Source: Yuukianura sp. NJ FZ-2021
Taxonomy: Eukaryota
Assembly: GCA_046563655.1 (NCBI GenBank)
Contig: JAJCTO010000012.1
Span: 186,001 to 250,000, forward strand
Length of the DNA: 64,000 bases
Direction: 5' to 3'
Part shown: positions 1,247-57,660 of the stretch, piece after piece
How positions within the stretch are numbered: position 1 is the first letter of the stretch
Layout: each line of letters opens with the position of its first letter
Position numbers and translations under genes: made by a program
Notes under the pieces: model-generated
Told to the model about the DNA's origin: nothing
Seen by the model: only the letters and a program-made list of their open reading frames with translations
Database searches by the model: none

Positions 1247-1641
1247 TGAAGTGCCCCGGGTTTCCCCCTTTAGGTTAGCGTCATTTGCCCTTGAGGTTAG
1301 GGTGTGGCCCTAGGTTAGTGTAGTTAGGTTAGGGTTAGTCTTAGCGTTTAGTTGAGATTGGTTTAGAGTTAGCGGGAGTTTTGAGAGAGAGAGAGAGAGG
1401 TCAGGAGAGTATTGGAGACTGGTTGTGCCAGTCAGTCGGTTTTTGGTGTTCGATTCAGGATGAGCTGAAGTTTTGTATCATAGTGTACAATAAATATATT
1501 TTATAATTATTGTCGTCGTGTCTTCGTGTTGTTTCATTTGGTGTCCCTTTTGGTCCTCAGTTTCGTTGCATGAGTCCGGCAGTGCTCGGATCGTAGTCTG
1601 GAGGCCATCTTTGGCAGTTTTACGTAGCACGAAGTGCTACA
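1247..1641 (+). repeat. 5' LTR of element A (end at 1641 or 1643)
   Basis: Starts TGAAG at the satellite junction, ends CTACA(CA) immediately before a TGG-starting PBS; contains AATAAA (~1489), (GA)n and TTAGG-like motifs; no second copy is available to fix the boundary. Confidence 0.75.
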
Positions 1642-1643
1642 CA

Positions 1644-1653
1644 TGGCGACCGT
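1644..1653 (+). promoter_or_regulatory. Primer binding site, tRNA-Arg-like (TGGCGACCGT)
   Basis: Follows the LTR end; resembles the TGGCGACCGTG tRNA-Arg PBS of the 412/mdg1 Gypsy group. Confidence 0.7.
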
Positions 1654-1881
1654 TTTGTGAGTGTTACTGCTGAGGTCAAAGGTTACAATGGTGTAACAAC
1701 ACATGGTGAGTGTTAAAAACTTTTATTCTGTGTCAAGTGGGATCAAGACATCATGTAATTGTTCGTGTGTGGACGTTACCCTTGGTCAAAGGAAAGTTGC
1801 CATAATTCTGAAGTGGATCATCTGCAAATTCTGTACATAGAAGGAGGAAGTTGCCGAAACAACTTCCACTGGATCCACTCC

Positions 1882-3414
1882 ATGTCAGACAGAAAACCAG
1901 TAAGTAAAGAATTAAAAAATTTGGAAATTGATCCTACAGTGACATTTAAGCTACCAGAGCTTAGTCCAACATCAGATTCGGAAGGACCGTTTCTCCGAAG
2001 TCAAGAAAGTAAAATTCCGACTCCAATTACATCCCCAAAAATCATTGTCAGTGCTCCAGGTTCATCAGTAACCATGGCAACATACACCAAGGAGGAAGTG
2101 GACAGATTAGTGGCCGAGGCCGTGGCCCATGCCGTGCGCGGCGTGGAGCAGAGATTAGTTCAGCGGGTGACCGGTGGAGTCGCTGCGGTGACTCCAGCCC
2201 CTGCGGAGGCAGATCCAGTTGGTCAGACCCAAGCATTGATAACAGCATTGAAGAGTATCAAGTTCACATCATTATCATCTAAATTGCCTGTGCCGAGTTT
2301 TGATGCTAAGAAGATGTCAGCGGCAGGCTACCTAAATGAAGTAGAGCGTTACTTCACTGCTCAAGGACACGAGCAGAGGCAGTTTCTTTATCTTGTGAAG
2401 ACGGTCTTGCCTGTTGAATCTCAACCATGGCTAGACCACATCCTAGTGACAGTGACAGACTGGGATTCATTCAAAGACGCTTTTATCAGTAGATATGATA
2501 ATTGGATGGATGTGGCAGAACGAACGAGGCTTCTGCACACAAGAAGACAACAGTTCAACGAGTCTGTTGAATTTTATTTGTATGATGTGGTTCGGTGCTC
2601 TAGATTAATATATCCACAAGAGTCAGTGGCTGATGCAGTGTTACGTGCTAAATTAGGTTTGAATCCGAGGATTCGCACAGCCCTTGGAACACAACAATTC
2701 GACACAGTAGAATCACTTTTTGATGCATGTCGAATTGCACATGCAAATTTGACGGCAGAAGACAGAATCACAAAAAACAAATTCGGATTACCTCCAATTG
2801 TCAAGGTCGACTCAAAGTCAGACTCAGTTAAGAAAGATGATAATTCCACTAATTCGAATGCTGGAAGTTCTGCTGGAACTTCCAATGGAAATAATTGGTT
2901 TCGTGGGAAGGAAGCCAAAAATAATGGCTTCCGTGGAAACTGGAAAGGCAAGGGAAATGGCTACAAGAATTATTCCAGTGATCAATCCCCGACTAATGGA
3001 AGTAATGGAAGTCCGAACAGTGGACATTCCTCATCTCAACCCAATGACCAGTCACAAGGTCAAAGTTCAAAATCCAATTATGACAAGAATTCAGTGCAAC
3101 CTCAAAATGATTCATCTGCACGAGGGAAGGGCGGTTACCGTGGTAATCGTGGTTCTTCTAATGACAACGACCGAGGTGGTGGTCAAGGCAGAGGTCAAGG
3201 TCAGACCTCTAGACAAGATGTAAGTGATGTTCAGTGCTTCAAGTGTAATGGTTTTGGGCATCGTAAGTTTCAGTGTCCATCAGGTGTTGGTTTGGCCTTG
3301 GGGTCATTTCAAGAGGAGGTTCCACAAGGACCTCCAGTTCCGAAAAAGAAGAAGGAGCCACCTGAAAAGAATGAAGCGTCGACTTCTAATGAGAAGTTAA
3401 ACGCTCAGTGGTGA
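1882..3414 (+). CDS. gag: Gag of element A (ORF open from 1759; first ATG 1882)
   Basis: Capsid-like region (WDSFKDAFISRY...QQFNESVEFY), Gly/Asn/Arg-rich linker, CCHC knuckle CFKCNGFGHRKFQC. Confidence 0.9.
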   Translation: MSDRKPVSKELKNLEIDPTVTFKLPELSPTSDSEGPFLRSQESKIPTPITSPKIIVSAPGSSVTMATYTKEEVDRLVAEAVAHAVRGVEQRLVQRVTGGVAAVTPAPAEADPVGQTQALITALKSIKFTSLSSKLPVPSFDAKKMSAAGYLNEVERYFTAQGHEQRQFLYLVKTVLPVESQPWLDHILVTVTDWDSFKDAFISRYDNWMDVAERTRLLHTRRQQFNESVEFYLYDVVRCSRLIYPQESVADAVLRAKLGLNPRIRTALGTQQFDTVESLFDACRIAHANLTAEDRITKNKFGLPPIVKVDSKSDSVKKDDNSTNSNAGSSAGTSNGNNWFRGKEAKNNGFRGNWKGKGNGYKNYSSDQSPTNGSNGSPNSGHSSSQPNDQSQGQSSKSNYDKNSVQPQNDSSARGKGGYRGNRGSSNDNDRGGGQGRGQGQTSRQDVSDVQCFKCNGFGHRKFQCPSGVGLALGSFQEEVPQGPPVPKKKKEPPEKNEASTSNEKLNAQW

Positions 3415-3438
3415 ATGAGAAGTCGTCCATCATTCACC
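3396..3438 (+). promoter_or_regulatory. -1 programmed ribosomal frameshift signal (G_TTA_AAC + hairpin)
   Basis: GTTAAAC at 3396-3402 lies in the short gag/pol overlap (pol-frame stops at 3387 and 3390); 7-nt spacer; perfect 9-bp stem GGTGAATGA/TCATTCACC (3410-3418/3430-3438). Confidence 0.8.
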
Positions 3439-6400
3439 CTACCCTAGTTCAAGTTTCGGACGATTTAATTCCTTTTGTGACTGTGGCGAATGAAGATTCG
3501 AAATTTTTGGCAATTTTCGACACGGGATGTTCGCAGTCACTCATTGATGTAAAGTTATGTGAAAAGTTACAGTCAGTTGTAGTTCCATTAAAAAATAAGT
3601 CTACAACTATGATGAATAGTCAGAAGCTACGTCTCATTGGCTTCTGTTTTGTGTATATAAAAATTGGTGGTCGAACTTTCAAGTCAAAGTTTTTTGTGGC
3701 CGAAAATTTGCCAGTTAAGTGTGTGTTAGGTTCTGATTTTTGTTTTCAGAATGACATTGTAATTAGATTGAGAAGTAAAGAGTTTTGGTTTGGTGACAAT
3801 GGAAGTCAGAAATTCAAATTGACTTCCACTACAGAAACAACCGGGACTGCGTTGTTTTCAGTGGCTTTACCAGAAAGTCACAATCAAGATAGTGAAGTGC
3901 AAGTGAGAGTTCAGCGTGTCCTAGAGAAATTTCCAACGGTCGTCCGGAGTGATGGAAAGTTGGGAAGGACGGACCTGACTCATCATGTGATAGAAGATGA
4001 AGGGTGTCCACCGGTAAGGAACCCTTACAGAAGGTCACCAGAAATGCAAAAGATCATCAATGATCAAATTCAAGAAATGTTGAAGGAAGGTCTAATCAGA
4101 CCTTCAAGGTCACCGTATGCAGCTCCAGTTGTGGTGGTACCAAAGAAAGACGGCAGTAAGAGACTCTGTGTGGACTATACGTTGCTCAACCAGCAAACGA
4201 AGACGAATGCTGCGCCAATGGAGAGTGCTCATTCCATTTTACACACAATTCCTGCTGGTTATTGGTACACAGTGATTGACCTTGCGAAAGGATATTGGCA
4301 AGTCAAGTTGCATCCGGACAGTGTTGAGAAGTCAGCATTCGTGACTCAAGATGGTCATTACGAGTTCCTAGTGATGTCATTCGGATTAAAGAATAGTCCA
4401 AAGACGTGTCAGCAGTTGATGCGGAAAGTCATCCAAGGATTCTCCAAGTTTGCAAAGTGCTACATGGATGATATCATTTTGTTCAGTAAGACTCTGGATG
4501 AACATTTAGTGCATTTAGAAAAAGTGCTGAGTAGGTTGAAGATGGCGGGACTCACCATTAGTCCTCAAAAGTTACAGTGTTGTAGGAGAGAGGTTGATGT
4601 GTTGGGCCATCGTTTGACAGAAAATGGTCTACAAAAGTGTCCTAAAAAAGTGAGTGCCATAGTGGATTTCCCTACTCCGAAGAACGTCAAAGAAGTGCAA
4701 AGTTTCCATGGAATGAGTCAGTGGTATGCTCCATTTATTGAACATTTTGCTGCAAAGGCAGAGCCACTGTACCGAATTCTAAGAAAAAATCAACCATGGG
4801 TTTGGGGAGAAGAACAAGAGAAGTCGTTCCAGTCATTAAAAGAGTCAATGTGCAACGATGTGATGTTACATGCAGTTGACTACGCTATCCGATTTTGTTA
4901 AAGTGTGATGCGTCGAATTATGGGTTGGGTGCGGCCTTAACCCAAGTGATTAATGGTGTGGAGAGACCAGTGATGTTTATCAGTAAAACACTCCGAAAAT
5001 CCGAAATTCGGTACCACATTTACGAAAAAGAGTTGTTCGCGATTATTTGGGCCTACCTGAAGCTGAGAGAATACATTGAAGGTCAGAAGTTCACAATTAT
5101 AACTGACAATAAAGCCTTATCATTCCTCAACAAGATGAAGGAGCGGAAAGCAAAATTGGCTTTGTGGGATACGGAGATAAAGTCATGGGGTGTCGAGATC
5201 AAGCATCGTTCCGGGAAGGATAATGTGGAGGCGGACGCGCTTTCACGTGCTCCAGTTCCTGTCGATGAAGCGGATCTCGATTTTGAAGATGATTCCCCGG
5301 CGTACATGTACTCGCCAACGGCCGTGGCGTTACTGTCGTTTGATACTCCTACGATCCAGAGGATGAAAGACGAACAACGAAGAGATCCTGATTTAGTGAA
5401 AGTGATCAGTGACATTGAAAGTGGTAAAAGTGTTAGAAGTTACGTCCTAGAGAATGGCGTACTAGGCAGAGAAGTCAAAGGCTTTGACTTCTATTCCGAT
5501 AATGGGTTCTGCGGAGACATTATCGAGGGGCGGTGTGCGGAAACGAGGCCTCAATCTTCCGACATCACTCTAGAGGACGTTGACGAAAAAGAGTTCAGCA
5601 GTTCCTCAGCTCGTAAAAGTGAGCTCATTCAGGTGCCAGTGGTACCCAGGGTCATGATACCCGAAATAATGAAGTTACTTCATGATGTGCCAGAAGCAGC
5701 GCATCTTGGCATCAAAGCCACAAAAGTGAAAATCAAGAGAAGATTTTTCTGGAAAAACATGAATAAGGACATCAGTGATTATGTGAAATCGTGTCCAGTT
5801 TGTCAAGCGGTCAAGTCTTGCAACTACAAGCCCTTTGGTTTACTTCAAGCAGTGGTGCCTCCAACTAAAGTGTTTGAGAAAATCTACATCGATTTTCTAG
5901 GGCCCCTGCCAAGATCTTCAAATCAAAATGAGTATTTGTTCGTCGTGGAAGACGATTTATCCAAGTGGGTGGAGTTATTCCCGATGCGCAAAGCAAAATC
6001 GAAAAAAGTTGTGGAAGTGTTAGTGAATGAAATTTTTTGTCGTTATGGTACTCCGAAAACAGTTGTGTCGGACAATGGAAGCCAATTTCTTTCCAAAGTG
6101 ATGATTAAAATGGCTAAGGACTGGAAGATCAACCATGTTCCTGTTAGTCCGTACCATGCGCAAGCTAACACAGTCGAAAAGGTCAATCGGAACCTTAAGC
6201 CTATGCTCCAGGCTTATGTCGACAAGAATCATAGATCATGGGACCAGCATCTCCAGAAGTTCGCATTGGCTCTTAGAACTTCTGTCCATTCGACTACTAA
6301 AGTGACTCCTGCGTTACTGAATTTAGGTCGTGAGATTCCGCTGCCCCTTGATAGGAACTTACAAAGTGATGGTGACAGGGAAGTCCGGAAGTTAGGACTT

Positions 6401-6853
6401 CTGCCTGCTCAATTAGAAGAAATCATTCAGTTCGTGAGGAAGAACATGGAAGAAGCACATGAGCATAATATCAAGCATTATGACTCTAAACATCAAGAAG
6501 GAAACTTTCAAGTTGGTGATTTAGTACTTATAAAAAATCATTCGTTGTCAGACAAGAAAAAAGGAATTGCGAAAAAATTAGATCCTCGTTACATTGGTCC
6601 ATACCAAATTAGTGAAGTGTTAACCCCAGTGACCTTCAAACTTGTGACATTGCCTGAGAAAACTAATTTTGGAAAGCGTTATGTGTCGGAGTTGAAGCCT
6701 TATACTGTTCGCACGTCGCAGTTTGCGGTTCCGAAAATTCCCACTGAGTCAGAGGATTGGTCGGACTCGGAGGAGGAAGCGAACTCTGGAGGAAGAACTT
6801 TGAGGAAAAAAGTTCGGCTCAACTATCGCACGCTCGCTGGATACAGAAACTAA
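3408..6853 (+). pseudogene. pol: Pol of element A (PR-RT-RNase H-integrase), one frameshift near 4890
   Basis: PR FDTGC, RT YMDD, RNase H CDASNYGLGA, IN HHCC (LHD..AHLG..CPVC), DFLGP/SDNG core, GPY; split into 3408-4901 and 4895-6853 at the RT/RH junction. Confidence 0.92.
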
Positions 6854-6913
6854 AACGTGCTCTGTTCAGTTGTTCTTATTTAGTTATTTGGAAGTCATTT
6901 CCTGACTTCCATC

Positions 6914-8122
6914 ATGCCATCATCAATTGTTAGTGATGTGGTTCCAGTCAGTGGAAAGAAAAAGAAAACTCAAGATTACTGGAAGAAGAGACGGGAGTGC
7001 GAATTGAGGTATGGTACTGCTGATAAGAGTCCACAGGAACGTAAGGACATGTTTTTATTCGAGTCTGCTCAACGGAATTCATGGGATGAATTCCCGTACA
7101 AGTATCATCCTCACACGTCATTAGTGAAAATGTTTCGGTTGTGGGATGCAGTTATGGAGCCCTCAAAAGGAAACATCTGTGACGAAAGACAGCTGGTACC
7201 AATTCGCATTATTGATACAGAAGCTAAGTTCATGGTTATGCTTGGTTTGTTGAGAGCCGAACGAGTTATAAGTGTTGACATGGAATTCAGTCATGAGAAA
7301 GGATATCGTGACCGTTATGTTTGTTTAGTGCAGATATCGACTAAGGAATCGGATTTCATCATTGATCCATTTGTCGTGCCCATTCAGATGCAATTGTTAC
7401 GTGAAGTGTTCTCAAATGGAAATTATATCAAGATTCTGCATGGAAGTGTAAATGACATGTTCATGTTCCAGCTCCACTACCAAATCTTCTTCGTGGGTGT
7501 TATTGACACGCAAATGGTGGATTCTGTCTTTGGAGGGACTCAAGGACGTGGATTGGACAAAGTGATTCGTGACTACTTGCCTGGTGTGAAAGTGTGCAAG
7601 GATTGTCAACTTGCTGATTTCAGGATCCGTCCAATTAAAAACATGCATCCAGATATGATTCAGTATGCCAGGAGTGACACACATTTGTTGTTACGTGTAT
7701 TTGAAGTCATGAAGAAACGCTATGACTTCAAAAGTGAAAGTGTTAAGTGGAATGAGGTTGTCCAGTTGTGTAATAATTTGTGCTTAAAAGTATACAAATT
7801 TAAGCCTAATCCAAGTGCCCGTGAGATTATGGCTAAAGTGAGCATATGTGACGTAAGTGTCACTATGATGGAGCAAGTGGTCAGCTGGAGAGACTTGGTT
7901 GCCAGGGAGATGGACGTTCAACCAAAGGAAGTCATTGCTGATGTTACTTGTGCTCAATTGGTCAAGGATGGGCCTAAAAATACGTTGGACATTGTAAAAG
8001 TGATTGGCAAAAATGTTTTGTCATCTGGTCATGTGGATATGCTATTGGAAATTTTTGTATCTACTAAAAGAGTGGGTGGAGTCACAGAAGTTGCTGCTGG
8101 AGAAAATGAGTTACTTTTCTGA
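6914..8122 (+). CDS. Rrp6/EXOSC10 (RNase D family) DEDDy 3'-5' exonuclease + HRDC domain, retrotransposon-borne; C-terminus truncated by satellite
   Basis: ExoI SVDMEF..VCLVQISTKESDFIIDPF; ExoII KILHGSVND; QLADFRIRP; ExoIII YARSDTHLLL; HRDC-like WRDLVAREMD; the last 7 codons derive from satellite. Confidence 0.88.
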   Translation: MPSSIVSDVVPVSGKKKKTQDYWKKRRECELRYGTADKSPQERKDMFLFESAQRNSWDEFPYKYHPHTSLVKMFRLWDAVMEPSKGNICDERQLVPIRIIDTEAKFMVMLGLLRAERVISVDMEFSHEKGYRDRYVCLVQISTKESDFIIDPFVVPIQMQLLREVFSNGNYIKILHGSVNDMFMFQLHYQIFFVGVIDTQMVDSVFGGTQGRGLDKVIRDYLPGVKVCKDCQLADFRIRPIKNMHPDMIQYARSDTHLLLRVFEVMKKRYDFKSESVKWNEVVQLCNNLCLKVYKFKPNPSAREIMAKVSICDVSVTMMEQVVSWRDLVAREMDVQPKEVIADVTCAQLVKDGPKNTLDIVKVIGKNVLSSGHVDMLLEIFVSTKRVGGVTEVAAGENELLF

Positions 8123-10598
8123 AATCTTCCTGAAAAGTACTACAGGAACCCAAGTTTAATTGGCGTGGATAGATCGCAATTAAATCCGGTTAGAGCTGAC
8201 TTAAAAGTCTGGATGAACCGCTCTGCCTCGGATTTTATCTTGGGTTGGTGTGCGCCACCCAGGGCAATGTCGAGCACCATTTTGACGCAAAAACGACTTA
8301 AATTTGTGAGAATGAACATGCAAATGTGAGAATGAACAGAAAGTAAATTACATTTTTGAAATCCTCATAAAAAGTGCTACAGGAACCCACTTTCACTTGC
8401 TGTGTCGTCCCTCATCTTGTTACCTTTATTTATGAAAATTCATGTTTCATAACAAAGAATTCAAAAGAAATGCATTCCGGAACGATGCTTGGTAAAAGTC
8501 AACTATATTTTTGAAATCCTCATAAAAAGGGCTACAGGAACCCACTTTCACTTGCTGTGTCGTCCCTCATCTCGTGACTTTATTTTATGAAAATTTATTT
8601 CAAAACAAATCATTCGAAAAACTCCCACGCGTAGCAATGCCGAGAGAAAATGAGTTACTTTTTTGAAATCTTCCTGAAAAGTACTACAGGAACCCAAGTT
8701 TAATTGGCGTGGATAGATCGCAATTAAATCCGGTTAGAGCGTACTTAAAAGTCTGGATGAACCGCTCTGCCTCGGATTTTATCTTGGGTTGGTGTGCGCC
8801 ACCCAGGGCAATGTCGAGCACCATTTTGACGCAAAAACGACTTAAATTTGTGAGAATGAACATGCAAATGTGAGAATGAACAGAAAGTAAATTGCATTTT
8901 TGAAATCCTCATAAAAAGTGCTACAGGAACCCACTTTCACTTGCTGTGTCGTCCCTCATCTTGTTACCTTTATTTATGAAAATTCATGTTTCATAAAAAG
9001 AATTCAAAAGAAATGCATTCCGGAACGATGCTGGGTAAAAGTCAACTATATTTTTGAAATCCTCATAAAAAGGGCTACAGGAACCCACTTTCACTTGCTG
9101 TGTCGTCCCTCATCTCGTGACTTTACTTTATGAAAATTTATTTCAAAACAAATCATTCGAAAAACTCCCACGCGTAGCAATGCCGGGTGAAAATGAGTTA
9201 CTTTTCTGAAATCCTCCTGAAAAGTACTACAGGAACCCAAGTTTAATTGACGTGGATATGTCGCAATTAAATCTGGTTAGCGTGTACTTAAAGATCTGGA
9301 TGAAACGCACTGCCTCGGATTTTATCTTGGGTTGGTATGCGCCACCCAGGGCAATGTCGAGCACCATTTTGACGCAAAAACGACTTAAATTTGTAAGAAT
9401 GAACATGCAAATGTGAGAATGAACAGAAAGTAAATTACATTTTTGAAATCGTCATAAAAAGTGCTACAGGAACCCACTTTCACTTGCTGTGTCGTCCCTC
9501 ATCTTGTTACCTTTATTTATGAAAATTCATGTTTCAAAACAAAGAATTCAAAAGAAATGCATTCCGGAACGATGCCTCGTATTTTATCTTGGGTTGGTAT
9601 GCGCCACCCAGGGCAATGTCGAGCACCATTTTGACGCAAAAACGACTTAAATTTGTAAGAATGAACATGCAAATGTGAGAATGAACAGAAAGTAAATTAC
9701 ATTTTTGAAATCGTCATAAAACGTGCTACAGGAACCCACTTTCACTTGCTGTGTCGTCCCTCATCTTGTTACCTTTATTTATGAAAATTCATGTTTCAAA
9801 ACAAAGAATTCAAAAGAAATGCATTCCGGAACGATGCCTCGTATTTTATCTTGGGTTGGTATGCGCTACCCAGGGTAATGTCGAGCACCATTTTGACGCA
9901 AAAACGACTTAAATTTGTGAGAATGAACATGTAAACGTGAGAATGAACAGAAAGTAAATTACACTTTCGAAATCCTCATAAAAAGGGCTACAGGAACCCA
10001 CTTTCACTTGCTGTGTCGTCCCTCATCTTGTTACCTTTATTTATGAAAATTCATGTTTCAAAACAAAGAATTCAAAAGAAATGCATTCCGGAACGATGCT
10101 GGGTAAAAGTCAACTATGTTTTTGAAATCCTCATAAAAAGGGCTACAGGAACCCACTTTCACTTGCTGTGTCGTCCCTCATCTTGTTACCTTTATTTATG
10201 AAAATTTATTTCAAAACAAATCATACGAAAAACTCCCACGCGTAGCAATGCCGGGAGAAAATGAGTTACTTTTCTGAAATCTTCCTGCAAAGTACTACAG
10301 GAACCCAAGTTTAATTGGCGTGGATAGATCGCAATTAAATCCGGTTAGAGCGTACTTAAAAGTCTGGATGAACCCCTCTGCCTCGGATTTTATCTTGGGT
10401 TGGTGTGCGCCACCCAGGGCAATGTCGAGCACCATTTTGACGCAAAAACGACTTAAATTTGTGAGAATGAACATGCAAATGTGAGAATGAACAGAAAGTA
10501 AATTACATTTTTGAAATCCTCATAAAAAGTGCTACAGGAACCTACTTTCACTTGCTGTGTCGTCCCTCATCTTGTTACCTTTATTTATGAAAATTTAT
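8099..10598. repeat. Satellite DNA array (block 2)
   Basis: Same monomer family as 1-1246. Confidence 0.97.
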
Positions 10599-11134
10599 TG
10601 AGGGGTTGCAATGCCCCGACGACTGGCACACTGGCCACTCGAAATAAATGAGATGATGTGGGGCAGAGATCACGAGAGCTGTAAACGGATAATGAACTTT
10701 ATTTACAGTAATTAGGATAGAGTTTACGTTCTAATGAGAGCCAAATGTTGAATTGATGAAGTGTAGAGGTTGGTGGGGCTCGGTCCTGACAGGATTGACC
10801 AGGTACTGGTCCGGTGGGGCTTGTAGAGGTCACGTCCGTGTCACACAATAGATCCGGCGTGGTCCAGTGGCCAATCCAAGATGGAGGAGATGTGGAGAGA
10901 GACGGGACAAGATCCGGGCAGAGTGACGGTTGGAGTTGGACTGTTGTATGGACAGGAGTGGACTGGAGTGACGATGACGAGACGAGATGCATGTCCAAAT
11001 AGATGATGCAACTTCCCGGTTTTGGTGGTGAGGATATGGAGTTGTTGTTGTGCTGCTGCTGGAAGGACGAAGGGGGAGAAGAGGGGAAAGGGAACCAAAG
11101 TGGCTATAGTGGTTTGTGGGGAATAACCCCCACA
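10599..11134 (-). repeat. 3' LTR of element B (536 bp)
   Basis: Matches 33948-34508 apart from about 9 substitutions, a 24-bp indel and a 1-bp indel (counted by eye). Confidence 0.93.
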
Positions 11135-11186: not shown

Positions 11187-12407
11187 TTATTTTGGTGGAG
11201 CTGGAGGATCTCGGCGTTTTGGGGAATTCTTCCTTAGCGGAGGTGGAGCATTGGCCGAGTTCAATGCCCACCACCGAGCACGTCTCTGCTGCCGATTCGG
11301 AGCTGGTGGATTTGGTGGGACAGGGGGAAAACGTCCTTGTACAGGAGCTGGGGGAGCTGAGGAAGCTGAAGCTGCTGGAGCTGAAACTACTGGAGCTGGA
11401 ACTCCTGGAGCTGGGGTTAAATTTGAAGTTGGTGGGGAGTTGAAAGTGAAAGTAACCGAGGTTGCTGAATTTGGGAGAAGAGTGTAGTATGGGAAGTATC
11501 CAGGGGGAATTGATGAAAATGGGAATTGTGAAGTTGCAGAAGTGACAGGAACGGTAATTGAAGTGGAAGTGGACGGAATTTGTGAATTTGACCAAGTGGC
11601 TGGAGAAACTGGACGTGAATTTGGAGAAAGTGGCCGAATTTGGGGGGAAGCTGAGCGATTTCGGGGTGGAGCTGGACGAGCGTTGTACGGAGAGGGCCGA
11701 TTGGAACGGAATTGAGCTCGAACAGGGGGAACAGATTTTGACGAAGTGCTGGGTCCAGGGTTTTGGGGGTTTTGGGGGGTGCTTGGGGACAAGGAAACGT
11801 TTGACATTTTGCGTGTCAAAGCTGTAGGGGAGCTGGATCGCGAACGACCAACTGGGGGTTGTTTTGGGGGTCCATTTGGAAACTGCAAATCCAGAAGCGA
11901 GGGAATCTTCGCAGATCCAAGCCGCTGAGCCTGCAGTTTGGATTTTGGCGCTGGGTCACGAGGACGACGAAACGTGGCAGAATCTTGGGACTTGGGGGGA
12001 ACAACCACGACGACCGAAGCAAGTCTTGGGCGTGGTGCTGGAGGAGGAGCCGAAACCATGTCCTGGAGTGACTTTTGGGGGGAATTTGGTTGGAAGCTGC
12101 TAGAGCTTGGGGAAAACAACTGCCGATTGAGCTTTTTCGGAGATTTTGGAGGGGAAGCAGCAGCAAGGGGCATGTCCCAGTCGTCATCGGGAATCCGAGC
12201 AATGGCGGGCGTAGAAATTGGAGCAGCAATGACCGTAGGAGACGGAGACGAAGAGGATGACGAAGAGGATGAAGAAGACGGAGAAACAGCATTATTTTGA
12301 GGAGGAGAGTTCAACAAGTCATCTTCCGCAGCCAAATCGATCTCGGCGATTCCTTCAGAGGCATCATCTCCTTCGTCCATCATGTCATCATCGTGAGGGG
12401 GGTCCAT
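11187..12407 (-). CDS. ORF3 of element B: 406-aa Pro/Ser-rich, probably disordered protein of unknown function
   Basis: Long ORF between the integrase stop and the 3' LTR; ATG immediately preceded by a polypyrimidine tract + TAG acceptor; acidic N-terminus, basic C-terminus. Confidence 0.65.
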   Translation of the reverse strand: MDPPHDDDMMDEGDDASEGIAEIDLAAEDDLLNSPPQNNAVSPSSSSSSSSSSSPSPTVIAAPISTPAIARIPDDDWDMPLAAASPPKSPKKLNRQLFSPSSSSFQPNSPQKSLQDMVSAPPPAPRPRLASVVVVVPPKSQDSATFRRPRDPAPKSKLQAQRLGSAKIPSLLDLQFPNGPPKQPPVGRSRSSSPTALTRKMSNVSLSPSTPQNPQNPGPSTSSKSVPPVRAQFRSNRPSPYNARPAPPRNRSASPQIRPLSPNSRPVSPATWSNSQIPSTSTSITVPVTSATSQFPFSSIPPGYFPYYTLLPNSATSVTFTFNSPPTSNLTPAPGVPAPVVSAPAASASSAPPAPVQGRFPPVPPNPPAPNRQQRRARWWALNSANAPPPLRKNSPKRRDPPAPPK

Positions 12408-12451: not shown

Positions 12452-14728
12452 TCAGCGCTTCTTTGGCTTTGCGAGGCGGGAAATGCAAGACAGAGCTTTG
12501 GTGTGAGCCGCGCGTTTCGTACGACCAGAAATCGGAAGTTTGACGCTGGCAGGGGCGCAAACTATGGGGATTTTACTCGCAGCGGGATGCAGGGAATACT
12601 GGGCGGGTAAAATTGGTGGAATTAGGATTTCTGGGTCACGGCTTTGATTTTGGTTATTTAAGTCAACATTAGGGGGGTCAGAATTTTGGTTTGACGCAAT
12701 GGGAAGCGTAACAGGGTCATTTTGCTCAGTTGGAAATGGCAATTTTGGTAAGTTAGAGGACAAATCAGGGTCAGACACTGGAGGGGGGACAAAATCGTTA
12801 TCAGACGACTGAGAGGAACTACTGTCTGCATCAGACGTGTCATAAACACGCTGATTGTAAGGTTTAAGGCGCTGAACGTTCACGACTGTCTCGTGAGGCT
12901 GCCGAGGGGGGACCGAAGTAATTCGAACAGTGCCATTATGGAGGACGTCAATGACTTTGTAAGGGCCAATCCATTTCTTCGTAAATTTGCCGACACGACC
13001 TTTTTTCCGCTGAAAGTTCCTGAGCAGAACTTTCATACCAACGACATAAGTGGGGAAACGGATCTGTAACTGGGCCTTAACTCTGAGTAGCTGCTGCTCA
13101 CGGGACAGCTCGTGGGCTAAGTTATTTGCAACAAATAATCGGTCAAGGGCATCGTCGGGCTCTAAATATTGCTGGGGAAGGGGAAACAGCCTGTCTACCG
13201 GCAAAACCGGCTCCCTACCAAAGACCGGAAAATAAGGAGAAAAATTAGTGACACGATGTACTGAACAATTAATGGAAAATACCACCCTGGGGAGATGTAG
13301 ATCCCAATCCTTGTGGTTTTCACTTACGAATTTGGCGATTACTGACTTTACCGTGCCGTTATGTCTTTCACAGAGGCCGTTAGACTTGGGATTATACGAA
13401 GTCGTGGATCTGTGCTCAATGGCATGGAGGGAAAGGAAATCTTCAAATTCGTCGGAAAGGAAAACCGTACCACGGTCTGACAGAATGATTTTGGGAATTC
13501 CGTGGCGAAAAAGGACGTGTTTGTTAAGCACTTTGATCGCTTGAGCAGAATCTGCTGCGGGAACTGGCCAGGCTTCTACGTAACGGGTATGGAGATCAAT
13601 TACTGTCAGAATGTACTTGTTACGTCTCGTTGTGACTGGGAATGGGCCTAAGTAGTCTAGGGCAATGGTGTGGAATGGAATGGCGGGAACGTCAAGACCG
13701 GCGCTATTTGGCGGGAGAGCAAAATTCCGTCTATTATGGATCTGACACAAGTGGCACGACGTGACAAATTTCACCACATCTCGATACATCCGGGGCCAAT
13801 AGAACCTGGAGCGAAGAAGATGCCAAGACTTGTGTAAGCCGAGGTGGCTAAGGGAGTCGTTATGAACGGATTCCATGGACGATTTTCGGAGGGATTTAGG
13901 GAGACAGAGACGCCAGAGATTGCCAAATTCCGAGTAGTTCATCCGGTACAAAATTCCATCTCGCAGACTGTACTCTCGCAGTTTCTTGGGTTCGGGCAAA
14001 TTATGGGAAGCACAAGTTTGTTCTGCTGTCAAATACTCAATCACAGGAAGCCATTCTGGCTCTTTAAGCTGGAGATCTTTTAGTTTTGCATCTCTAACTC
14101 TTCGTGGGGATACAGGGGAAACCGCTAAGGCGAGAAGATGATGTTCAATGGCCAAATGGTCTGTGTCAGAGGGGGCTGGGTCAACTGGGTTACGCGATAG
14201 GGGATCAGCATCGGTGTGAACACGACCACTCTTATGAACCACGGTAAAATCATAAGGTTGGAGGGCTAAAGACCAACGGGAAATTTGGCCATAGGGGTCT
14301 TTAAATTTTAGCATGTCACAAAGGGAATGGTGTTCAGTGACAACTTTAAAATGACGGCCGTATAAATACGGTCGAAATTTCTCTACAGCCCAAACAAAAG
14401 CCTTCATTTCCAATTGGGGGGTTCCAAATTTCGATTCGGAGGGGGAAACCGCTCTAGAAGCATACGCTACCACTCTCTCTTTTCCGTCCTGAATTTGGCA
14501 AAGGGTCGCTCCAAAACCGAGCCCAGACGCATCACAATGCACGGACGTTTCGGCTTCTTCATCGGGGAACGCAAGGACAGGGGGAGATGTTAATTTGTCT
14601 TTAAGCGTCTGAAACGCTGTTTCGGCTTCCGGGGTCCAATGGAACGGGGTACCACGCTTCCCAGCAACAATAAGATGTAGTGGACGGGCAATTTCTGCAA
14701 AACCCTCGATAAATCGGCGATAGTAACT
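12452..14728 (-). pseudogene. pol: Pol of element B, 3' part (RT connection, RNase H, integrase)
   Basis: Resumes in frame after the element C insertion (SYYRRFIEGFAEIARPL..HCDASGLGFGA); HHCC, DYLGP, SDRG, GPY motifs. Confidence 0.92.
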
Positions 14729-15374
14729 TGTTACGCTCCTTTTTGCGCAATACCGTTGGAAGGGCCCTCTGGGTCAACGTCCGTCTAGCCAAAGGGGTCA
14801 AGGGCCTTAGGGACCCCCTTCCCGGTGAGAGTTCGTCCGTTGTCGTGTAAGGAGTAATAATTAGTAAGTGAATTAAATAAAGAAATGAGGTTTCCCATAC
14901 CTTCTTTCTATTCTTTCTGTGCTTATTTATTCGTAGTGGTGTATCGGGGTACTTAGTGGTGCTATTGGGTAGTCTTCTTCTCAGCTTCCGTCCTTTCTTA
15001 CTTCTAAATTGTGACTGAATGTTATTTATACAGAGGTGCTTAATTGCTTAATTAAGGTTGCTAGGTGGTCGTTAATTGGAAATTTGAATAACAACTTTTG
15101 CTTCCCTAACCGCATTAGCGGCGCTGGCTGTGGTTGTTCTAATTGGATAAATTTTCGATTTTAAATCACTTGGCCTTGTGGTCACTTGGCCTTGTGGTTT
15201 GTCCGCTCAGAAGGAGTTAGCCTGGTGCTTGGAGTGCTTAGTGACTAAGTCTACTTGGCAACTAGATGCGCTTAGCAACTAGGTAGTGCACGTGCGACCT
15301 TGGTCAGTGTTTTGTGGAAGTGAAAGTACAAGTGCAGGTACTGAAAGTATTGTTGTGCAAGTGCAGGTGCAACA
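14729..15374 (-). repeat. 3' LTR of element C (646 bp)
   Basis: Identical to 26979-27624 except one C/T difference seen (15269 vs 27519); purine-rich tract AGGCAGTGGAAAG immediately upstream on the - strand. Confidence 0.96.
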
Positions 15375-15432
15375 CTTTCCACTGCCTAATCTTTTTGTCG
15401 TCCCGACAAAACAAGTGTGTGAAGCTGATGAC

Positions 15433-16683
15433 TCATTCCCGGTTTGGTTGTCGTCGTTCGAGTTCCAGAAGCCTATCCTGCATATCCCGAACCTGGCGTA
15501 CTAAGTCGGGGATGAGGACATCGGGTGGTGGTAAGTCGCCGAGGGTGAGGTGTCGTTGAAGTGCAGTGGGGTATGGCGTCATTCGTCGGCTGGATATGGG
15601 AGTGGTGGATTCTGCGGCTCGTCGGCTCGGTGAGCGTATCTCTTCCACGAATTCGGGGCCAAACCAGACAAGTAACTGTGGAATGAGTTGGGACGCTCGG
15701 GCTTCGTCCATTCCGGGTGGTTTGGGTAACGTGGTAATTCGTCGGGACAGTCCTCTGATGAACTCGAGATTGGTACCGGTCTTCCATCGCATGTAGTCGG
15801 CAACGAAAAGTTGAGTGGGAACGTCCAAGACTCGAGCGACATAAATGATGCTGGCGCGAATGCGTGTATCACGATGGTCGGTTGGTAGGGTATTTGAAAA
15901 GAAGTGAGTTAGGCGAAACGGTTCTGCGGTTTGTTCATGGGTGGTCTCGAGCATGCTTTGTAACAGCGCTGGGATGTCGATTGATCCGATTGCGTAACCG
16001 TCCTGTAGGTACACGGTAATATCTTTCCACAGTTGAGCGATTGTCTCTGTGTGATCAACCATGCGAGGGTCGTCTTGTTGCATGCGGTGTTGGGGGAAGC
16101 CCGCCGGTATGGTGACCGTGGATTGGAAGTAGCTTCTCAAGGTTCGTGGCGCTGCATGGTCTGGCAAACCGAATATGTGGCAGCGGATAGTCTCTACGTC
16201 CAAGACACTGCGAGGGATGACTCCGAAATCTCGCTCAATCCACTGTTGTTGCTCCTTTCCGTTGTAGCAAATCTTCATTATCCGTGGTGATGCAAACAGA
16301 GTTTTCAACGGGCCATGCGTGTCTTCATCTCTGGGGTCCATGATAAAGGTTTTGTTCTTGGATACAATGACCAAACGGCAGATCGCTCCGATGTATGAGT
16401 GTGGCCATTCGAAACAGGCAAAGACAACTGGAGAGAGTTCGATTGCTTGTGAGACATGTGCCGTAACTTCTTCTTTCGTCTTCAAGACCGTGTAGTTAGA
16501 TGGAGGTAGGAGCCATCCTGGCGTCCAAAGTGAATCGTGCATACGAGTTTCGTCAATGTCCAGCACTTCCATCCGGTCTGGGCGTATCATTCGTGCTCCG
16601 TCCGTGAGGTTGCGCACTTGTGTTTGTGCGTACTTGAGTTGTGGGAGGTTCCGTGAGACTGAAGGTGCGATGTCGAATTCCAT
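15433..16683 (-). CDS. Divergent Rrp6/RNase D-like exonuclease-fold + HRDC-like protein, catalytic acidic residues apparently lost
   Basis: HSYIGAICRLVIVSKNKTFIMDP / LKTLFASPRIMKICYNG..QWIERDFGV..SVLDV parallel the Rrp6 ExoI-ExoII regions; VARVLDVPTQLFVAD parallels VAREMDVQPKEVIAD of ORF 6914-8122; splice acceptor + GCCATGG upstream. Confidence 0.65.
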   Translation of the reverse strand: MEFDIAPSVSRNLPQLKYAQTQVRNLTDGARMIRPDRMEVLDIDETRMHDSLWTPGWLLPPSNYTVLKTKEEVTAHVSQAIELSPVVFACFEWPHSYIGAICRLVIVSKNKTFIMDPRDEDTHGPLKTLFASPRIMKICYNGKEQQQWIERDFGVIPRSVLDVETIRCHIFGLPDHAAPRTLRSYFQSTVTIPAGFPQHRMQQDDPRMVDHTETIAQLWKDITVYLQDGYAIGSIDIPALLQSMLETTHEQTAEPFRLTHFFSNTLPTDHRDTRIRASIIYVARVLDVPTQLFVADYMRWKTGTNLEFIRGLSRRITTLPKPPGMDEARASQLIPQLLVWFGPEFVEEIRSPSRRAAESTTPISSRRMTPYPTALQRHLTLGDLPPPDVLIPDLVRQVRDMQDRLLELERRQPNRE

Positions 16684-16802
16684 GGCTAAGGAGTACCTGA
16701 GAAGGTGAAAATTAGATTAGACGTACAGTGTGCATGATTTGGTGTGCATCGTCAGGATCGTCATGAGTCAATTTCTGGGTGTGGGTTGGGTAGCGTTTGC
16801 GC

Positions 16803-19076
16803 TCAATAGTTATAGCCCGGTTCAGGATTTGTGCCGTTTCCCACATTTGTTTCGGCAAATGAGACTCGTCTGGCCTCAGAAAGAGGATAGTCGTAGTAAG
16901 CTTTCGGTGGGGTCTCTGGTTGTTGAGTGGCTTTATGGAGTTCGTTGATCGTCTCGTACTCCGTCTCGATCCGTTCAGCAAGGTTGGCTAGTGCACTGGT
17001 CCTAGGGAACTTCAAGTTCGTCAGTGGGTTGCGTTTCACGACAGGGCTGCTTCGCGTCAATTTGGCAGTTTGGGTGGCGGCTGCATAGGTGATCACCGGC
17101 TCTTCCTGCTGGGTGGCCTGGTTCCGTCGTCGCATGATGCAGTACCAGTACAGCGTGAATATTATGATGATGGTCATCAGAACCAGGGCTAAGGCGAAGT
17201 TGCTAGCATGGTGGTAGTCGACGTGGTCCGGTTGTGCCGCGGCTCCTCGTAGTCTGTCCAGGAACGGCAAGGCGAAGGTCAAGCCCGGGAAGGCTTGCAG
17301 TTGCTTGTAGAGTAGAAACCCTAGTCCCAAAGTGAGGCAGACATTCCAAATGATCAATGCCGTGTTAGTTGATGGCGGAATGATGTGCATCAACTTAGGC
17401 ACCATCATGGTCTTGAGTTGACTGATTTCGGTCAAGTTTAGTCGAGGTGCGTCGAGGTCCCAGGATTCGTTGAAGACTGATTTCAAGTTAGGGAAGACAG
17501 TTTGGCTTCCATAGTTCCAGTCGTGGGCTGGTTTGAGCATGATGTCGATCTTCGACATCATTGCTGGTATGACTATAGTGACTCGTGGTGCGTCCGCCAT
17601 GCCCGTGGGGCATGGATATGGTGGTCGAATTGTCCGTCGTCCTGGAACTTGTAGTTCGCAGTCGCAAGAGAGTCTGACTTCGAGGCTTCCAATCTGGTCG
17701 TTTGGTGGCTGCACGGGGTGAGTCCTGTTGTCCGAGATCCCGCGTTCTCCGCACTGGATCTGCATTCCTTCTGGGGCCCCAGTCAAGATAAATGTGTGGT
17801 AATCCAATTGGGTCACGCTGAAGTCTCCCGGTGTGTTGAGGCACTCGAACAGGCAAACCTCGTTGAGTTCTCTAACGCTAGCACCGCGTAAGAGCCGTTG
17901 GGCGCATAAGTATCCGGTCATCGGGTCGGAGCTGAACTGAGGCACATGGCAAAGTCCAGTTTCCGGGTGGCATTGCTGGAGTTGAGTCCCTTGAATCGTC
18001 ACTAGTTCTTCTTCGTTTACTGCCAAGTAGGCAGGGGCGTGCTGAACAATGCAGGTGCTGCCCTTGTAACTGAACGGCACGTTTATCATTTCGTATAGCT
18101 TCCAGTTGTCTACAAGCTTCTTGATGGGTACCCGAATGCGGTACATAATCCGTCCTCCGTCGCTGAAGGCGCAGTCGGTGAGCTTCAGTTTGTAATACCG
18201 TGTGACTTCGCCAACGGGTATTACGAGTCCGTAGCCATCGGCTAGTAGCTTCCGGCTGGCTTTTTGGAGGTCCGCTGCTAACCTAGTTGGTGGCACTGCT
18301 AGAATGGAAATCGTTTGGGCTCGGCAGTGGTCCTGTAGATCCTTGAAGCGCATTAGTTCTCCAATTTGGTTGAGATAGTCGAATACTTGGAGGAAGGTGC
18401 GTCTGGTGGAGTCTCCTTCTGCGGTTAGAAGACTCAACGTCCTTTGCACGCTTTCGTTGGTTTCTCGCATGGCGGCCTGCTCTTGGTAAAGACGGTTGAC
18501 ATGATCGTGTGCGCTTGAGAAGAGTTTGGAGACATTCTTTCCAAAAAGTTCCATTGAGGTCTTCATGTTCATCACATTTTGGTTGTTTATGACAACCGAG
18601 CCCTTAATGGCTTCCATAAACTTCTCAATGCTCTGGCCGTTCACTTGGAGGTCCTGCATGTCTCTTTTGGAGACGAATCCGCAACAAAAGCTGAACATGT
18701 CGCTGACTAAGGTGAGAGGGTTGAAGGACTGCCATGTGAGGTCTCGCTTCCTGCGTCCAGGGTTTACTTCTGTCATCATCATGTCATCCTTGATGGAGGC
18801 CAGCATCTTAGTGAGGTAGGTTGTGTAGGGTCGTATGTTCACTGGGAAGGTGCAACCTGCGGTTTGCGCGTTCCTGCATGTTCCTTCCATAAAATTTCCG
18901 ATAGGGTTGGTAAAGTTGACTTGGATGTCGTAGACCAAGGGAATTGTAGCAGTGTACAGCTCCGTACCTTTGACCTCCCGAACGAGAGATCCTGTGGTGA
19001 CCCTTACTTCGGTGGGTTGAATTGAGAACGCATTGGTTCCTTCGAGGATGGTTACCAGTATAACCAGCAACTCCAT
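16803..19076 (-). CDS. env: Envelope / class I fusion glycoprotein (errantivirus Env / baculovirus F-like)
   Basis: Signal peptide MELLVILVTILEGTNA, furin site RRKR followed by a hydrophobic fusion-peptide-like segment, heptad region, Cys-rich ectodomain, N-glycosylation sequons, C-terminal TM segments; located after pol. Confidence 0.85.
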   Translation of the reverse strand: MELLVILVTILEGTNAFSIQPTEVRVTTGSLVREVKGTELYTATIPLVYDIQVNFTNPIGNFMEGTCRNAQTAGCTFPVNIRPYTTYLTKMLASIKDDMMMTEVNPGRRKRDLTWQSFNPLTLVSDMFSFCCGFVSKRDMQDLQVNGQSIEKFMEAIKGSVVINNQNVMNMKTSMELFGKNVSKLFSSAHDHVNRLYQEQAAMRETNESVQRTLSLLTAEGDSTRRTFLQVFDYLNQIGELMRFKDLQDHCRAQTISILAVPPTRLAADLQKASRKLLADGYGLVIPVGEVTRYYKLKLTDCAFSDGGRIMYRIRVPIKKLVDNWKLYEMINVPFSYKGSTCIVQHAPAYLAVNEEELVTIQGTQLQQCHPETGLCHVPQFSSDPMTGYLCAQRLLRGASVRELNEVCLFECLNTPGDFSVTQLDYHTFILTGAPEGMQIQCGERGISDNRTHPVQPPNDQIGSLEVRLSCDCELQVPGRRTIRPPYPCPTGMADAPRVTIVIPAMMSKIDIMLKPAHDWNYGSQTVFPNLKSVFNESWDLDAPRLNLTEISQLKTMMVPKLMHIIPPSTNTALIIWNVCLTLGLGFLLYKQLQAFPGLTFALPFLDRLRGAAAQPDHVDYHHASNFALALVLMTIIIIFTLYWYCIMRRRNQATQQEEPVITYAAATQTAKLTRSSPVVKRNPLTNLKFPRTSALANLAERIETEYETINELHKATQQPETPPKAYYDYPLSEARRVSFAETNVGNGTNPEPGYNY

Positions 19077-19110
19077 TCTGAAGATAGAAGATTTAGGGTT
19101 AGAACTTACG

Positions 19111-26958: not shown

Positions 26959-26976
26959 ATCTCGGCAAATGCACCA
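26959..26976 (-). promoter_or_regulatory. PBS of element C, tRNA-Gly(GCC)-like
   Basis: TGGTGCATTTGCCGAGAT 2 nt after the 5' LTR; resembles the complement of the tRNA-Gly(GCC) 3' end (TGGTGCATTGGCCGGGAA). Confidence 0.65.
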
Positions 26977-26978
26977 TT

Positions 26979-54999: not shown

Positions 55000-55174
55000 T
55001 GTTACGGTTGGTAATGGAGAAGAGAGATGAGCTCAGTTGAGTGGGCTGGGATCGAGTGATCCCATGTCTTTATTGTTAGGTGCTTTTATACCTGTGAGTG
55101 AAGACTCTACAGAGGTGTTGGGTGACGTCAGCCGTGGCATGACGTTAGCCTTTAACCGTCCTACATACCTAACA
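55000..55174 (-). repeat. 3' LTR of element D
   Basis: On the - strand: TGACGTCA, TATAAAAG, AATAAA in promoter/poly(A) order. Confidence 0.92.
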
Positions 55175-57659: not shown

Positions 57660-57660
57660 C

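Follow-up and report, generated by a model that had tools for sequence, protein, structure and literature searches.

Within a stretch of 64,000 nucleotides (nt) of contig JAJCTO010000012.1 from Yuukianura sp. NJ FZ-2021 (positions 186,001 to 250,000 of the forward strand; hereafter the window) there is an open reading frame (ORF) whose product resembles the catalytic core of the ribonuclease Rrp6/EXOSC10, and this lies just downstream of the integrase of a Ty3/gypsy retrotransposon. We term it ORF3. Our analysis points to ORF3 being a 3'-truncated copy of an accessory gene of a Ty3/gypsy lineage, derived from Rrp6/EXOSC10, and we regard this as probable. That the gene is an integral, selected accessory gene of Rrp6 origin is highly probable. 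Judged from the conserved residues it is likely that intact copies would be catalytically active, and we propose more tentatively that the substrate could be the RNA or primer of the element itself, rather than host small RNA or complementary DNA (cDNA). As far as sequence comparison can establish it, this is a genuine and conserved family of genes that transposons carry.

ORF3 is intronless, and runs on the + strand from an ATG at 6914 to a TGA at 8120-8122. The ORF and its two domains are:

6914 to 8122, + strand: ORF3, Rrp6-core-like DEDDy exonuclease with HRDC, 402 amino acids (aa), 3'-truncated, native up to 8101
7205 to 7720, + strand: exonuclease domain, residues 98-269 (Pfam DNA_pol_A_exo1, E = 5.6e-27, 95.1 bits)
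7817 to 8062, + strand: HRDC-like helical domain, about residues 302-383 (Pfam HRDC, and predicted helices at 302-383)

A first-pass annotation of the window, made by a model from the letters alone, had described an Rrp6/EXOSC10-type core with an HRDC segment at this position, and Pfam profiles, alignment to Rrp6 and structural comparison with Foldseek are all in accord with that description. The exonuclease profile scores far above threshold. The HRDC profile gives E = 0.0032 and 17.9 bits, under its cut-off of 23.8 bits, and several relatives of ORF3 that lack a PMC2NT domain do reach it. When ORF3 was compared by phmmer with the sequences of solved structures the best match was yeast Rrp6 (E = 1.8e-28), aligned over ORF3 residues 94-363 and thus extending through the HRDC domain, followed by Trypanosoma brucei RRP6 (1.2e-25) and human EXOSC10 (3e-23). 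RNase D (7.2e-6) and a MUT-7 homologue (3.5e-4) were much weaker matches. The ORF3 sequences VDME, HGSVND and YARSD align with the ExoI, ExoII and ExoIII motifs of Rrp6, and in the alignment to the yeast protein the catalytic pentad is complete, comprising D122, E124, D181, Y251 and D255. The earlier statement that all the DEDDy residues are retained is therefore correct.

Equally clear is what the protein lacks. No match to PMC2NT was found in ORF3 with Pfam, as had been suspected, and there are only about 95 residues upstream of the exonuclease domain. These include two basic runs that resemble a nuclear localization signal, KKKK at residues 15-18 and KKRR at residues 24-27. Beyond the HRDC domain there are about 20 residues, of which the final seven are encoded by satellite DNA. 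Alignments to the yeast Rrp6 chains of 695-733 aa end at about chain residue 486-488, and by this extent of alignment there is no exosome-anchoring C-terminal region in ORF3, although no dedicated profile of the anchor region was searched.

The structure of ORF3 was predicted with AlphaFold2 from a 22-row alignment of its family (alignment A1), giving a model with a predicted local distance difference test (pLDDT) score of 89.9 and a predicted template modelling (pTM) score of 0.87. The top 12 matches to this model in a Foldseek search of the PDB are all catalytic cores of Rrp6, each aligned over about 330 columns that cover both the exonuclease and HRDC domains. The E value for Rrp6 is 2.9e-20, compared with 1.5e-13 for RNase D at rank 14, and lower in the list are Nibbler (4.5e-10) and EXD1 (2.5e-6). 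Thus Rrp6/EXOSC10 is the best match in both sequence and fold. ORF3 shares with the Rrp6/EXOSC10 structures (PDB 2hbj, 3saf, 4nlb, 5c0y) the exonuclease and HRDC core, the five catalytic residues and the motifs of the N-terminal wrap. It differs from them in having neither PMC2NT nor the exosome-associating C-terminal region, in being multi-copy and carried by a transposon, and in falling into a separate clade whose members end in a CCHC knuckle. EXD1 and Egalitarian, which are inactive RNA binders of the DEDD fold, and Nibbler/MUT-7 belong to the same fold superfamily and are among the Foldseek matches, but they are host genes and rank below Rrp6. RNase D of bacteria has two HRDC domains. Like ORF3 it is a stand-alone DEDDy exonuclease with HRDC and no exosome partners (PDB 1yt3), although it is the much weaker match by either method. 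A function as an envelope protein was considered and rejected; ORF3 has no membrane-protein character, and its predicted fold is that of a soluble nuclease.

These comparisons bear on the nature of the substrate. The nuclease might instead act on DNA in trans, trimming or proofreading the 3' ends of cDNA beside reverse transcriptase (RT) and integrase in the manner that DEDD domains serve DNA polymerases. The Pfam family is indeed the DNA polymerase A 3'-5' exonuclease family, the gene lies directly after integrase or is fused to it, and DEDD exonucleases serve fidelity in large RNA viruses according to PMC8297929. Yet the nearest proteins in sequence and fold are RNA enzymes, Rrp6 and then RNase D, and not the WRN or polymerase proofreading domains, and we regard a DNA-side role as very unlikely.

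The element in which ORF3 resides has the following features, in which LTR denotes long terminal repeat and bp base pairs:

1 to 1246, no strand: satellite array forming the left flank, with repeat units near 262, 242 and 155 bp (TRF period 262 at 493-1242)
1247 to 1642, + strand: probable 5' LTR, 396 bp, with TG...CA ends and AATAAA inside (by inspection of the sequence)
1643 to 1654, + strand: primer-binding-site-like TGGCGACCG..., directly 3' of the terminal CA of the LTR (by inspection of the sequence)
1882 to 3414, + strand: gag, 510 aa, containing a CCHC zinc knuckle that falls slightly short of the Pfam zf-CCHC cut-off (E = 0.00095, 19.6 bits)
3393 to 4901, + strand: pol part 1, protease (DTG) and RT, in the -1 frame relative to gag (Pfam RVT_1, E = 1.9e-31)
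4880 to 6853, + strand: pol part 2, RNase H and integrase, out of frame with part 1
6854 to 6913, + strand: spacer of 60 nt from the pol stop to the ORF3 ATG, with an in-frame TAG at 6881-6883 and pyrimidine-rich AG acceptor-like sites
8102 to 10595, no strand: satellite array resuming, its first 21 nt forming the last seven codons of ORF3 and the stop

The order gag (CCHC), protease, RT, RNase H, integrase is that of Ty3/gypsy elements (Metaviridae). The second part of pol contains the Pfam domains RT_RNaseH, Integrase_H2C2, rve and SH3_Tf2-1, and the closest named relatives of the integrase come from the springtails Orchesella and Folsomia, where they are annotated as Pol proteins of Ty3 or 17.6 type. 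Integrase terminates with TAA at 6851-6853. ORF3 thus begins on the same strand 60 nt beyond this stop, in the position that env occupies in a gypsy element, and the coordinates bear out the first-pass description on this point.

We have sought relatives of ORF3 among 1.84 billion representative proteins, which gave 4,627 matches with E ≤ 0.001 and 14 with E ≤ 1e-30. Forty-five proteins among the top matches were scanned with Pfam, and they fall into two kinds. In the first there is no PMC2NT and the exonuclease domain begins at about residue 75-99, as it does in ORF3. The second are ordinary Rrp6 proteins, in which it begins at about residue 200-320. PMC2NT was found in ten of the 45, all of the cellular type, and in none of the 22 relatives that form a clade with ORF3. 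All the named members of the group lacking PMC2NT are from springtails (Collembola), and besides those discussed below they include Orchesella dallaii P0151 and P0277 and Allacma fusca P0171.

The closest relative is P0106 (E = 6.8e-73, 38% identity), encoded on a metagenome contig of 3,573 nt (L001) in which an integrase ORF is followed after 36 nt by an exonuclease ORF of 532 aa. The L001 integrase ORF terminates in ...NYRTLAGYKN, and the C-termini of the two integrases are ...RVNYRTLAGYKN in L001 and ...RLNYRTLAGYRN in the window. Compared with the window, L001 shows 50% identity in integrase (551 aa) and 39% in the exonuclease (352 aa). A similar arrangement occurs in gene models from Orchesella. 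In O. dallaii P0110 residues 3-137 match residues 483-613 of the window integrase (E = 8e-22), and the exonuclease follows at residues 165-488. The O. cincta model P0007, annotated as the Pol polyprotein from transposon 17.6, comprises RNase H, integrase and a C-terminal fragment of the exonuclease. In addition, exonuclease P0154 and gypsy Pol P0010 are listed with longest contigs of equal length (8,265; ENA), as are exonuclease P0138 and gypsy Pol P0006 (4,273; Logan), and these may be two further integrase-exonuclease pairs, each on one contig.

Other searches returned less. With a six-row alignment a single locus, L001 itself, was recovered from 178 pattern matches in metagenome contigs, and none from 60 pattern matches in viral contigs. 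A search for homologues matched in length to ORF3 gave one match among 2063 candidates. For longer proteins there were three among 2347. These three were ordinary Rrp6 proteins that contain PMC2NT, and in none was pol fused with the exonuclease; both of these results are weak evidence. A search of the ESM Atlas gave clusters of cellular Rrp6 and RNase D only.

The recurrence of this gene order answers the simplest objection, that a gypsy fragment has by coincidence a host exonuclease gene or pseudogene as its neighbor. The 3' LTR is missing, so that ORF3 is not bracketed by LTRs here, as such a coincidence would allow. Against it, the same neighbors occur in the same order in L001 and in the two Orchesella gene models, ORF3 starts a mere 60 nt beyond the pol stop on the same strand, and in four sequencing runs from two organisms multi-copy contigs span all the bins of ORF3 just as they do those of gag and pol. 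Chance juxtaposition is close to refuted, and the earlier suggestion that the exonuclease belongs to the element is upheld.

To place ORF3 relative to cellular Rrp6 we calculated a quick IQ-TREE phylogeny of 56 rows and 325 columns, comprising the window ORF3, 24 proteins lacking PMC2NT and 31 of cellular type. The proteins were picked by hand (54 from 150 listed matches, with P0001 and P0260-P0262 added), and the Rrp6 of the host itself lies outside the comparison. ORF3 and 22 of the 24 proteins without PMC2NT form one clade opposite cellular Rrp6, with a value of 100 in the Shimodaira-Hasegawa-like approximate likelihood ratio test (SH-aLRT); the remaining two, P0123 and P0124, are placed among cellular Rrp6. 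Members of the clade are 23-39% identical to the window ORF3. The tree, which is unrooted, shows a distinct, old and long-branched clade, and does not identify the donor. Consensus sequences reveal N-terminal RPQ...HP motifs common to the family and cellular Rrp6, and from its sequence the family resembles an Rrp6 without its PMC2NT domain and without the exosome-binding tail. Three features set ORF3 outside the Rrp6 orthologue family: it has no PMC2NT and no exosome tail, and it is placed elsewhere in the tree. It is an Rrp6-derived nuclease, and probably works in the manner of the Rrp6 core.

The phylogenetic comparison had been put forward in the first-pass annotation as a check on the origin of the gene, which it saw as a captured host surveillance enzyme. 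If this is taken as a recent event, in which the element or a close ancestor in this host retrocopied the host Rrp6 and repurposed it, we would expect ORF3 to be intronless and nearer to Rrp6/EXOSC10 than to RNase D, MUT-7 or EXD1, and to share N-terminal motifs with cellular Rrp6, all of which is observed. But ORF3 falls with 22 relatives that lack PMC2NT and with none of the 31 cellular Rrp6 rows, its closest relatives are proteins of transposable-element type at just 38-39% identity, and the gene order is already present in L001, an element whose integrase is only half identical. Recent capture is therefore quite unlikely, and the claim does not stand in that form.

Alignment A1 shows how the family has been maintained. 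The D-E-D-Y-D pentad is kept in 20 of its 22 rows, the window ORF3 included, and 13 of the 22 have a C-terminal CCHC zinc knuckle and basic tail. The window ORF3 has no knuckle or basic tail because it is truncated at its 3' end; its native frame would be expected to continue for about 130 codons and to include a CCHC knuckle. Of the 21 ORF3 copy variants listed, 14 affect a third codon position (binomial p = 0.0018). Twelve are synonymous, where random changes would be so in 20% of cases, and in gag the same holds for eight of the 11 variants listed.

The copy in the window is nevertheless damaged. The non-repeated part of the element occupies 1247-8101 and is embedded in satellite. Its 3' end reads ...GCTGCTGGA and continues into satellite as GAAAATGAG..., as in the satellite unit at 341-420, where ...GCCGGGT is followed by GAAAATGAGTTACTTTTCTGAAATC. 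The satellite match of 368-757 with 8099-8488 is 94.9%, and contigs from the sequencing runs confirm the boundary, with loose ends at 8102 and a rise in word depth from about 1,000 to about 785,000. Because the sequence from 8102 onward is satellite, the stop of ORF3 and the seven codons that precede it are not native. The ATG and TGA are therefore where the first-pass annotation had placed them, but the native coding sequence ends at 8101. There is no second copy of 1247-1642 anywhere in the 64 kb, and so no 3' LTR; of the pair of LTRs, primer-binding site and polypurine tract expected of a complete element we find just the 5' LTR candidate and the TGG... site. The idea that satellite forms part of an LTR was rejected, there being no copy of 1247-1642 in the downstream 56 kb. 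The two pol frames overlap at 4880-4901, between RT and RNase H, and pol is thus frameshifted in this copy. With the 3' LTR missing, pol frameshifted and ORF3 fused to satellite, the window copy is dead as a transposon and non-autonomous. Its exonuclease had been called apparently active. The intact pentad agrees with this, but the truncation by satellite, the absence of the zinc-knuckle tail, the missing 3' LTR and the frameshift in pol do not.

A number of observations weigh against our interpretation. ORF3 in the window is 3'-truncated and fused to satellite at 8101/8102, and the order of integrase and exonuclease is seen at the DNA level in the window and L001 alone. P0110 and P0007 are automatic gene models, in which the junction could possibly be an artefact of annotation. 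None of the 32 contig pieces listed bridges 6853-6914, and three end at 6818-6849; with 3,812 further pieces beyond those 32, we draw no inference from the unbridged spacer. No RNA runs are present among the listed sequencing runs that contain the stretch. The tree is unrooted, was made by a quick method and has many long branches. In alignment A1, P0108 lacks one catalytic residue and P0117 most of them. The variant counts come from the best-supported subset, with 540 further variants, and none of the four listed in the HRDC region is synonymous. Finally, in three of four runs (X1, X3 and X4, from two organisms) there is an ORF3 variant in which 119 nt at 7804-7924 are replaced by the same 15 nt. 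This variant is a subfamily with a disrupted HRDC region, and its presence in three of the four runs indicates that broken ORF3s persist.

Taken to its limit, this would mean that the gene was acquired once and is now a decaying relic, drifting neutrally with its frame open by luck. The truncated and satellite-fused copy in the window, the disrupted 119-nt variant and the two family members without catalytic residues could all be read in that way, and the comparable ORFs of rotifers discussed below show no significant departure from neutrality according to PMC5408684. Drift would not, however, be expected to leave the pentad intact in 20 A1 rows that are just 23-37% identical to the window ORF3, to produce the excess of synonymous changes among the listed variants, or to preserve gene order at 50% integrase identity. 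We consider a relic highly improbable, and prefer a selected accessory gene of which broken copies also exist.

How might such a gene act? Rrp6 is a nuclear surveillance nuclease that helps to silence repeats. Its exonuclease-HRDC core alone is a distributive 3'-5' exoribonuclease, and PMC2NT and the C-terminal tail tie that core to Rrp47, Mtr4 and the exosome. The transposon gene would descend from eukaryotic Rrp6/EXOSC10 with the catalytic core kept. It would have retained a short N-terminal wrap, the DEDDy exonuclease domain and one HRDC domain, would have lost the Rrp47-binding PMC2NT and the exosome-binding tail, and in full-length relatives would have gained the CCHC knuckle and basic tail. 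The protein would then be a free-standing, distributive 3'-to-5' exoribonuclease, untethered from the exosome. The knuckle resembles that of nucleocapsid, and together with the basic tail it could direct the enzyme to single-stranded nucleic acid, most simply that of the particle or ribonucleoprotein (RNP) of the element. Delivery to the RNP would fit a gene that lies just after integrase, or is fused to it in the gene models. There the nuclease may trim RNA 3' ends to the benefit of the element, candidates being the genomic RNA or its tail, the primer, and tails added by the host. The first-pass annotation had suggested that it might trim or destroy small or antisense RNAs, or process RNA of the element, and these roles too are hypothetical.

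There is a precedent for an exonuclease gene in this position. The Juno and Vesta LTR elements of bdelloid rotifers, as well as the Athena/Terminon retroelements, carry a DEDDy ORF3 (Rodriguez, Kenefick and Arkhipova 2017, PMC5408684), also mentioned in the reviews PMC6338049 and PMC6431247. According to PMC5408684 the rotifer ORF3s are RNase D-like, are recognized by HHpred, have the residues DEED and were acquired at least twice; they do not clearly depart from neutrality, and their function is given as unknown. This is the single precedent that we have found for an exonuclease ORF3 in LTR elements, and the first-pass remark that the enzyme is not a standard LTR-element gene requires that qualification. 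We found no report of an exonuclease gene in gypsy elements of springtails or other arthropods in the literature covered, which leaves out most subscription journals as well as Repbase.

Set against the published description, the likenesses are several. In both cases an extra ORF follows pol in an LTR element and encodes a 3'-5' exonuclease of DEDDy/DnaQ type without transmembrane or coiled-coil features, and in both it occurs in more than one unrelated element lineage of one genome. The Juno/Vesta position of the ORF after pol is found in the window and in L001. The window copy has no 3' LTR, but in a second element an intact 3' LTR follows some 60 nt beyond a degenerate homologue, P0276 (below). 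The differences are in the proteins and the hosts. Here plain Pfam and phmmer searches reach E values of 1e-27 to 1e-28 to Rrp6, and it took HHpred to recognize the rotifer ORFs. The rotifer proteins are described as DEED, whereas we observe the full DEDD-Y pentad with HRDC, and a CCHC knuckle in the relatives. The hosts are arthropod-like in our case, with springtail relatives.

Viruses offer a looser parallel. Ampeloviruses encode WRN-like DEDDy ORFs, and the coronavirus ExoN is cited alongside them (PMC8297929). These too are selfish replicons in which a 3'-5' exonuclease of cellular origin serves as an acquired accessory gene, but their enzymes belong to the WRN-like or DEDDh subfamilies, they are RNA viruses and not retroelements, and there is no evidence of kinship.

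After the rotifer ORFs ours would be another case, independent of the first, far closer to Rrp6 and with relatives in arthropods. This suggests that elements acquire such nucleases repeatedly and benefit from them. Where a transposon lineage has retained an Rrp6 core with its catalytic residues intact, free of the exosome and bearing a nucleocapsid-like knuckle, there is a clean natural experiment in the reuse of genes between host and parasite. The protein is small and its predicted fold has high confidence, so that it is suited to biochemistry, and the conserved catalytic residues and CCHC tail make it testable whether it trims the 3' ends of particle RNA, removes inhibitory tails or attacks small RNA.

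The satellite is interrupted further downstream by a nested pair of LTR elements on the minus strand, and the inner of these contains a second Rrp6-like ORF:

10599 to 34505, - strand: outer LTR element, split by the inner one; its LTRs (10599-11131 and 33948-34505) are 94% identical
14728 to 27624, - strand: inner young LTR element, 12.9 kb, full-length, with LTRs of 647 bp that are 99.85% identical
15433 to 16683, - strand: degenerate Rrp6-like ORF P0276, 416 aa, the last gene, about 60 nt before the 3' LTR of the inner element

The LTRs of the inner element are at 14728-15374 and 26978-27624, and between them lie in order a matrixin ORF, gag, pol, a Baculo_F-like env and the Rrp6-like ORF. 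In Pfam searches the matrixin/Peptidase_M10 ORF (25225-25986) scores E = 6.8e-35 and the env-like ORF (16803-19187) has a weak match to Baculo_F (3.9e-5). P0276 matches DNA_pol_A_exo1 with E = 8.9e-05 and 22.8 bits, where the cut-off is 23.6, and T. brucei RRP6 with E = 1.7e-4. In hhalign against A1 the probability is 95% and E = 2.8e-08, over 82 columns only. The AlphaFold2 model has a pLDDT of 61.9, exceeding 80 in the core, and its best matches are Rrp6 cores, a result that is partly circular as an alignment of the Rrp6 family was supplied. A young full-length element thus carries an Rrp6-like ORF between its LTRs. The acidic residues of its ExoI and ExoII motifs are replaced, so that P0276 is probably inactive, and in losing acidic catalytic residues it is like EXD1 and Egalitarian. 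By combining a matrixin ORF, env and a dead Rrp6-like ORF between near-identical LTRs, the inner element shows that the gypsy elements of this genome carry an unusual wealth of genes.

P0276 bears on a further possibility, that of counter-defense. The nuclease could destroy or over-trim precursors of PIWI-interacting RNA (piRNA) and small interfering RNA (siRNA), or surveillance RNAs, and so act as a suppressor of silencing. The structural neighbors of ORF3 include the small-RNA trimmer and piRNA factors Nibbler and EXD1 (4.5e-10 and 2.5e-6 as above), the element is located in heterochromatin-like satellite with nested elements, and a role related to silencing was raised for the rotifer ORFs by the authors of PMC5408684. 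On the other hand the CCHC knuckle, the basic tail and the integrase-exonuclease gene models fit delivery to the RNP of the element at least equally well, and a suppressor based on nuclease activity would not tolerate the loss of catalytic residues that has occurred in the second element. We regard counter-defense as unlikely, and trimming of the element's own RNA as the better proposal. We offer a broader scenario as speculation, and it is itself unlikely to hold. Gypsy elements of springtail-like arthropods would long have kept a stripped-down Rrp6 nuclease with a nucleocapsid-like knuckle as a weapon or tool, either as a suppressor trimming piRNA/siRNA precursors or host-added 3' tails, or as a trans-acting editor of 3' ends that serves the reverse-transcription complex. 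It would be present in no fewer than two unrelated families of elements within a single genome, and in one of these, env-bearing and very young, it would have become an RNA-binding module without catalytic activity, much as happened to EXD1 or Egalitarian in the host.

We turn to the expression of ORF3. There is a donor consensus CCA/GTAAGT after codon 6 of gag (1897-1905; position 1900), and AG acceptor-like sites lie behind a pyrimidine run at 6868-6884, the AG at 6882-6883 being in the ORF3 frame. ORF3 may thus be translated from a spliced subgenomic mRNA in the style of env. The spacer in L001 is similar, with ...TGTCAG and then an open 24 nt up to the ATG of the exonuclease. Read-through of the pol stop into ORF3 was considered, and is unlikely in the window; the frame is shared, but there is a second in-frame stop, the TAG at 6881. 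L001 has one TAA and an open spacer of 12 codons between integrase and exonuclease, and because of that single stop and open spacer read-through would stay possible there.

At the 5' end of the element the LTR candidate 1247-1642 occurs once within the window. Contigs of runs X1-X3 cover 1247-1718 at roughly double the word depth of the internal bins. The candidate is variable in length at 1323-1415 around (GA)n, where contigs of several runs skip 55-86 nt. ARAGORN found no tRNA genes in the window.

The satellite (1-1246, 8102-10595 and 34509-64000, with periods of 262, 242 and 155 bp) makes up about half of the window. Positions 1-1246 match 8820-10064 at 97.4%, and have many further matches within 34.5-64 kb. 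In run X1 the word depth of the satellite is 785,564 compared with about 1,000 for the retrotransposon, some 800 times greater. The array is possibly centromeric or heterochromatic and a place where gypsy insertions accumulate.

Among the neighboring sequences, the inner element is unusual for an env-bearing gypsy element in that a metalloprotease gene separates its 5' LTR from gag. The outer element has a Ser/Pro-rich ORF of 406 aa at 11187-12407, downstream of integrase in the position of an ORF3, that gives no Pfam match. At about 55000-57900 the satellite gives way to some 3 kb of non-satellite sequence with a higher guanine-plus-cytosine fraction (0.40-0.42) and no long ORF, the longest frame from stop to stop being 117 aa.

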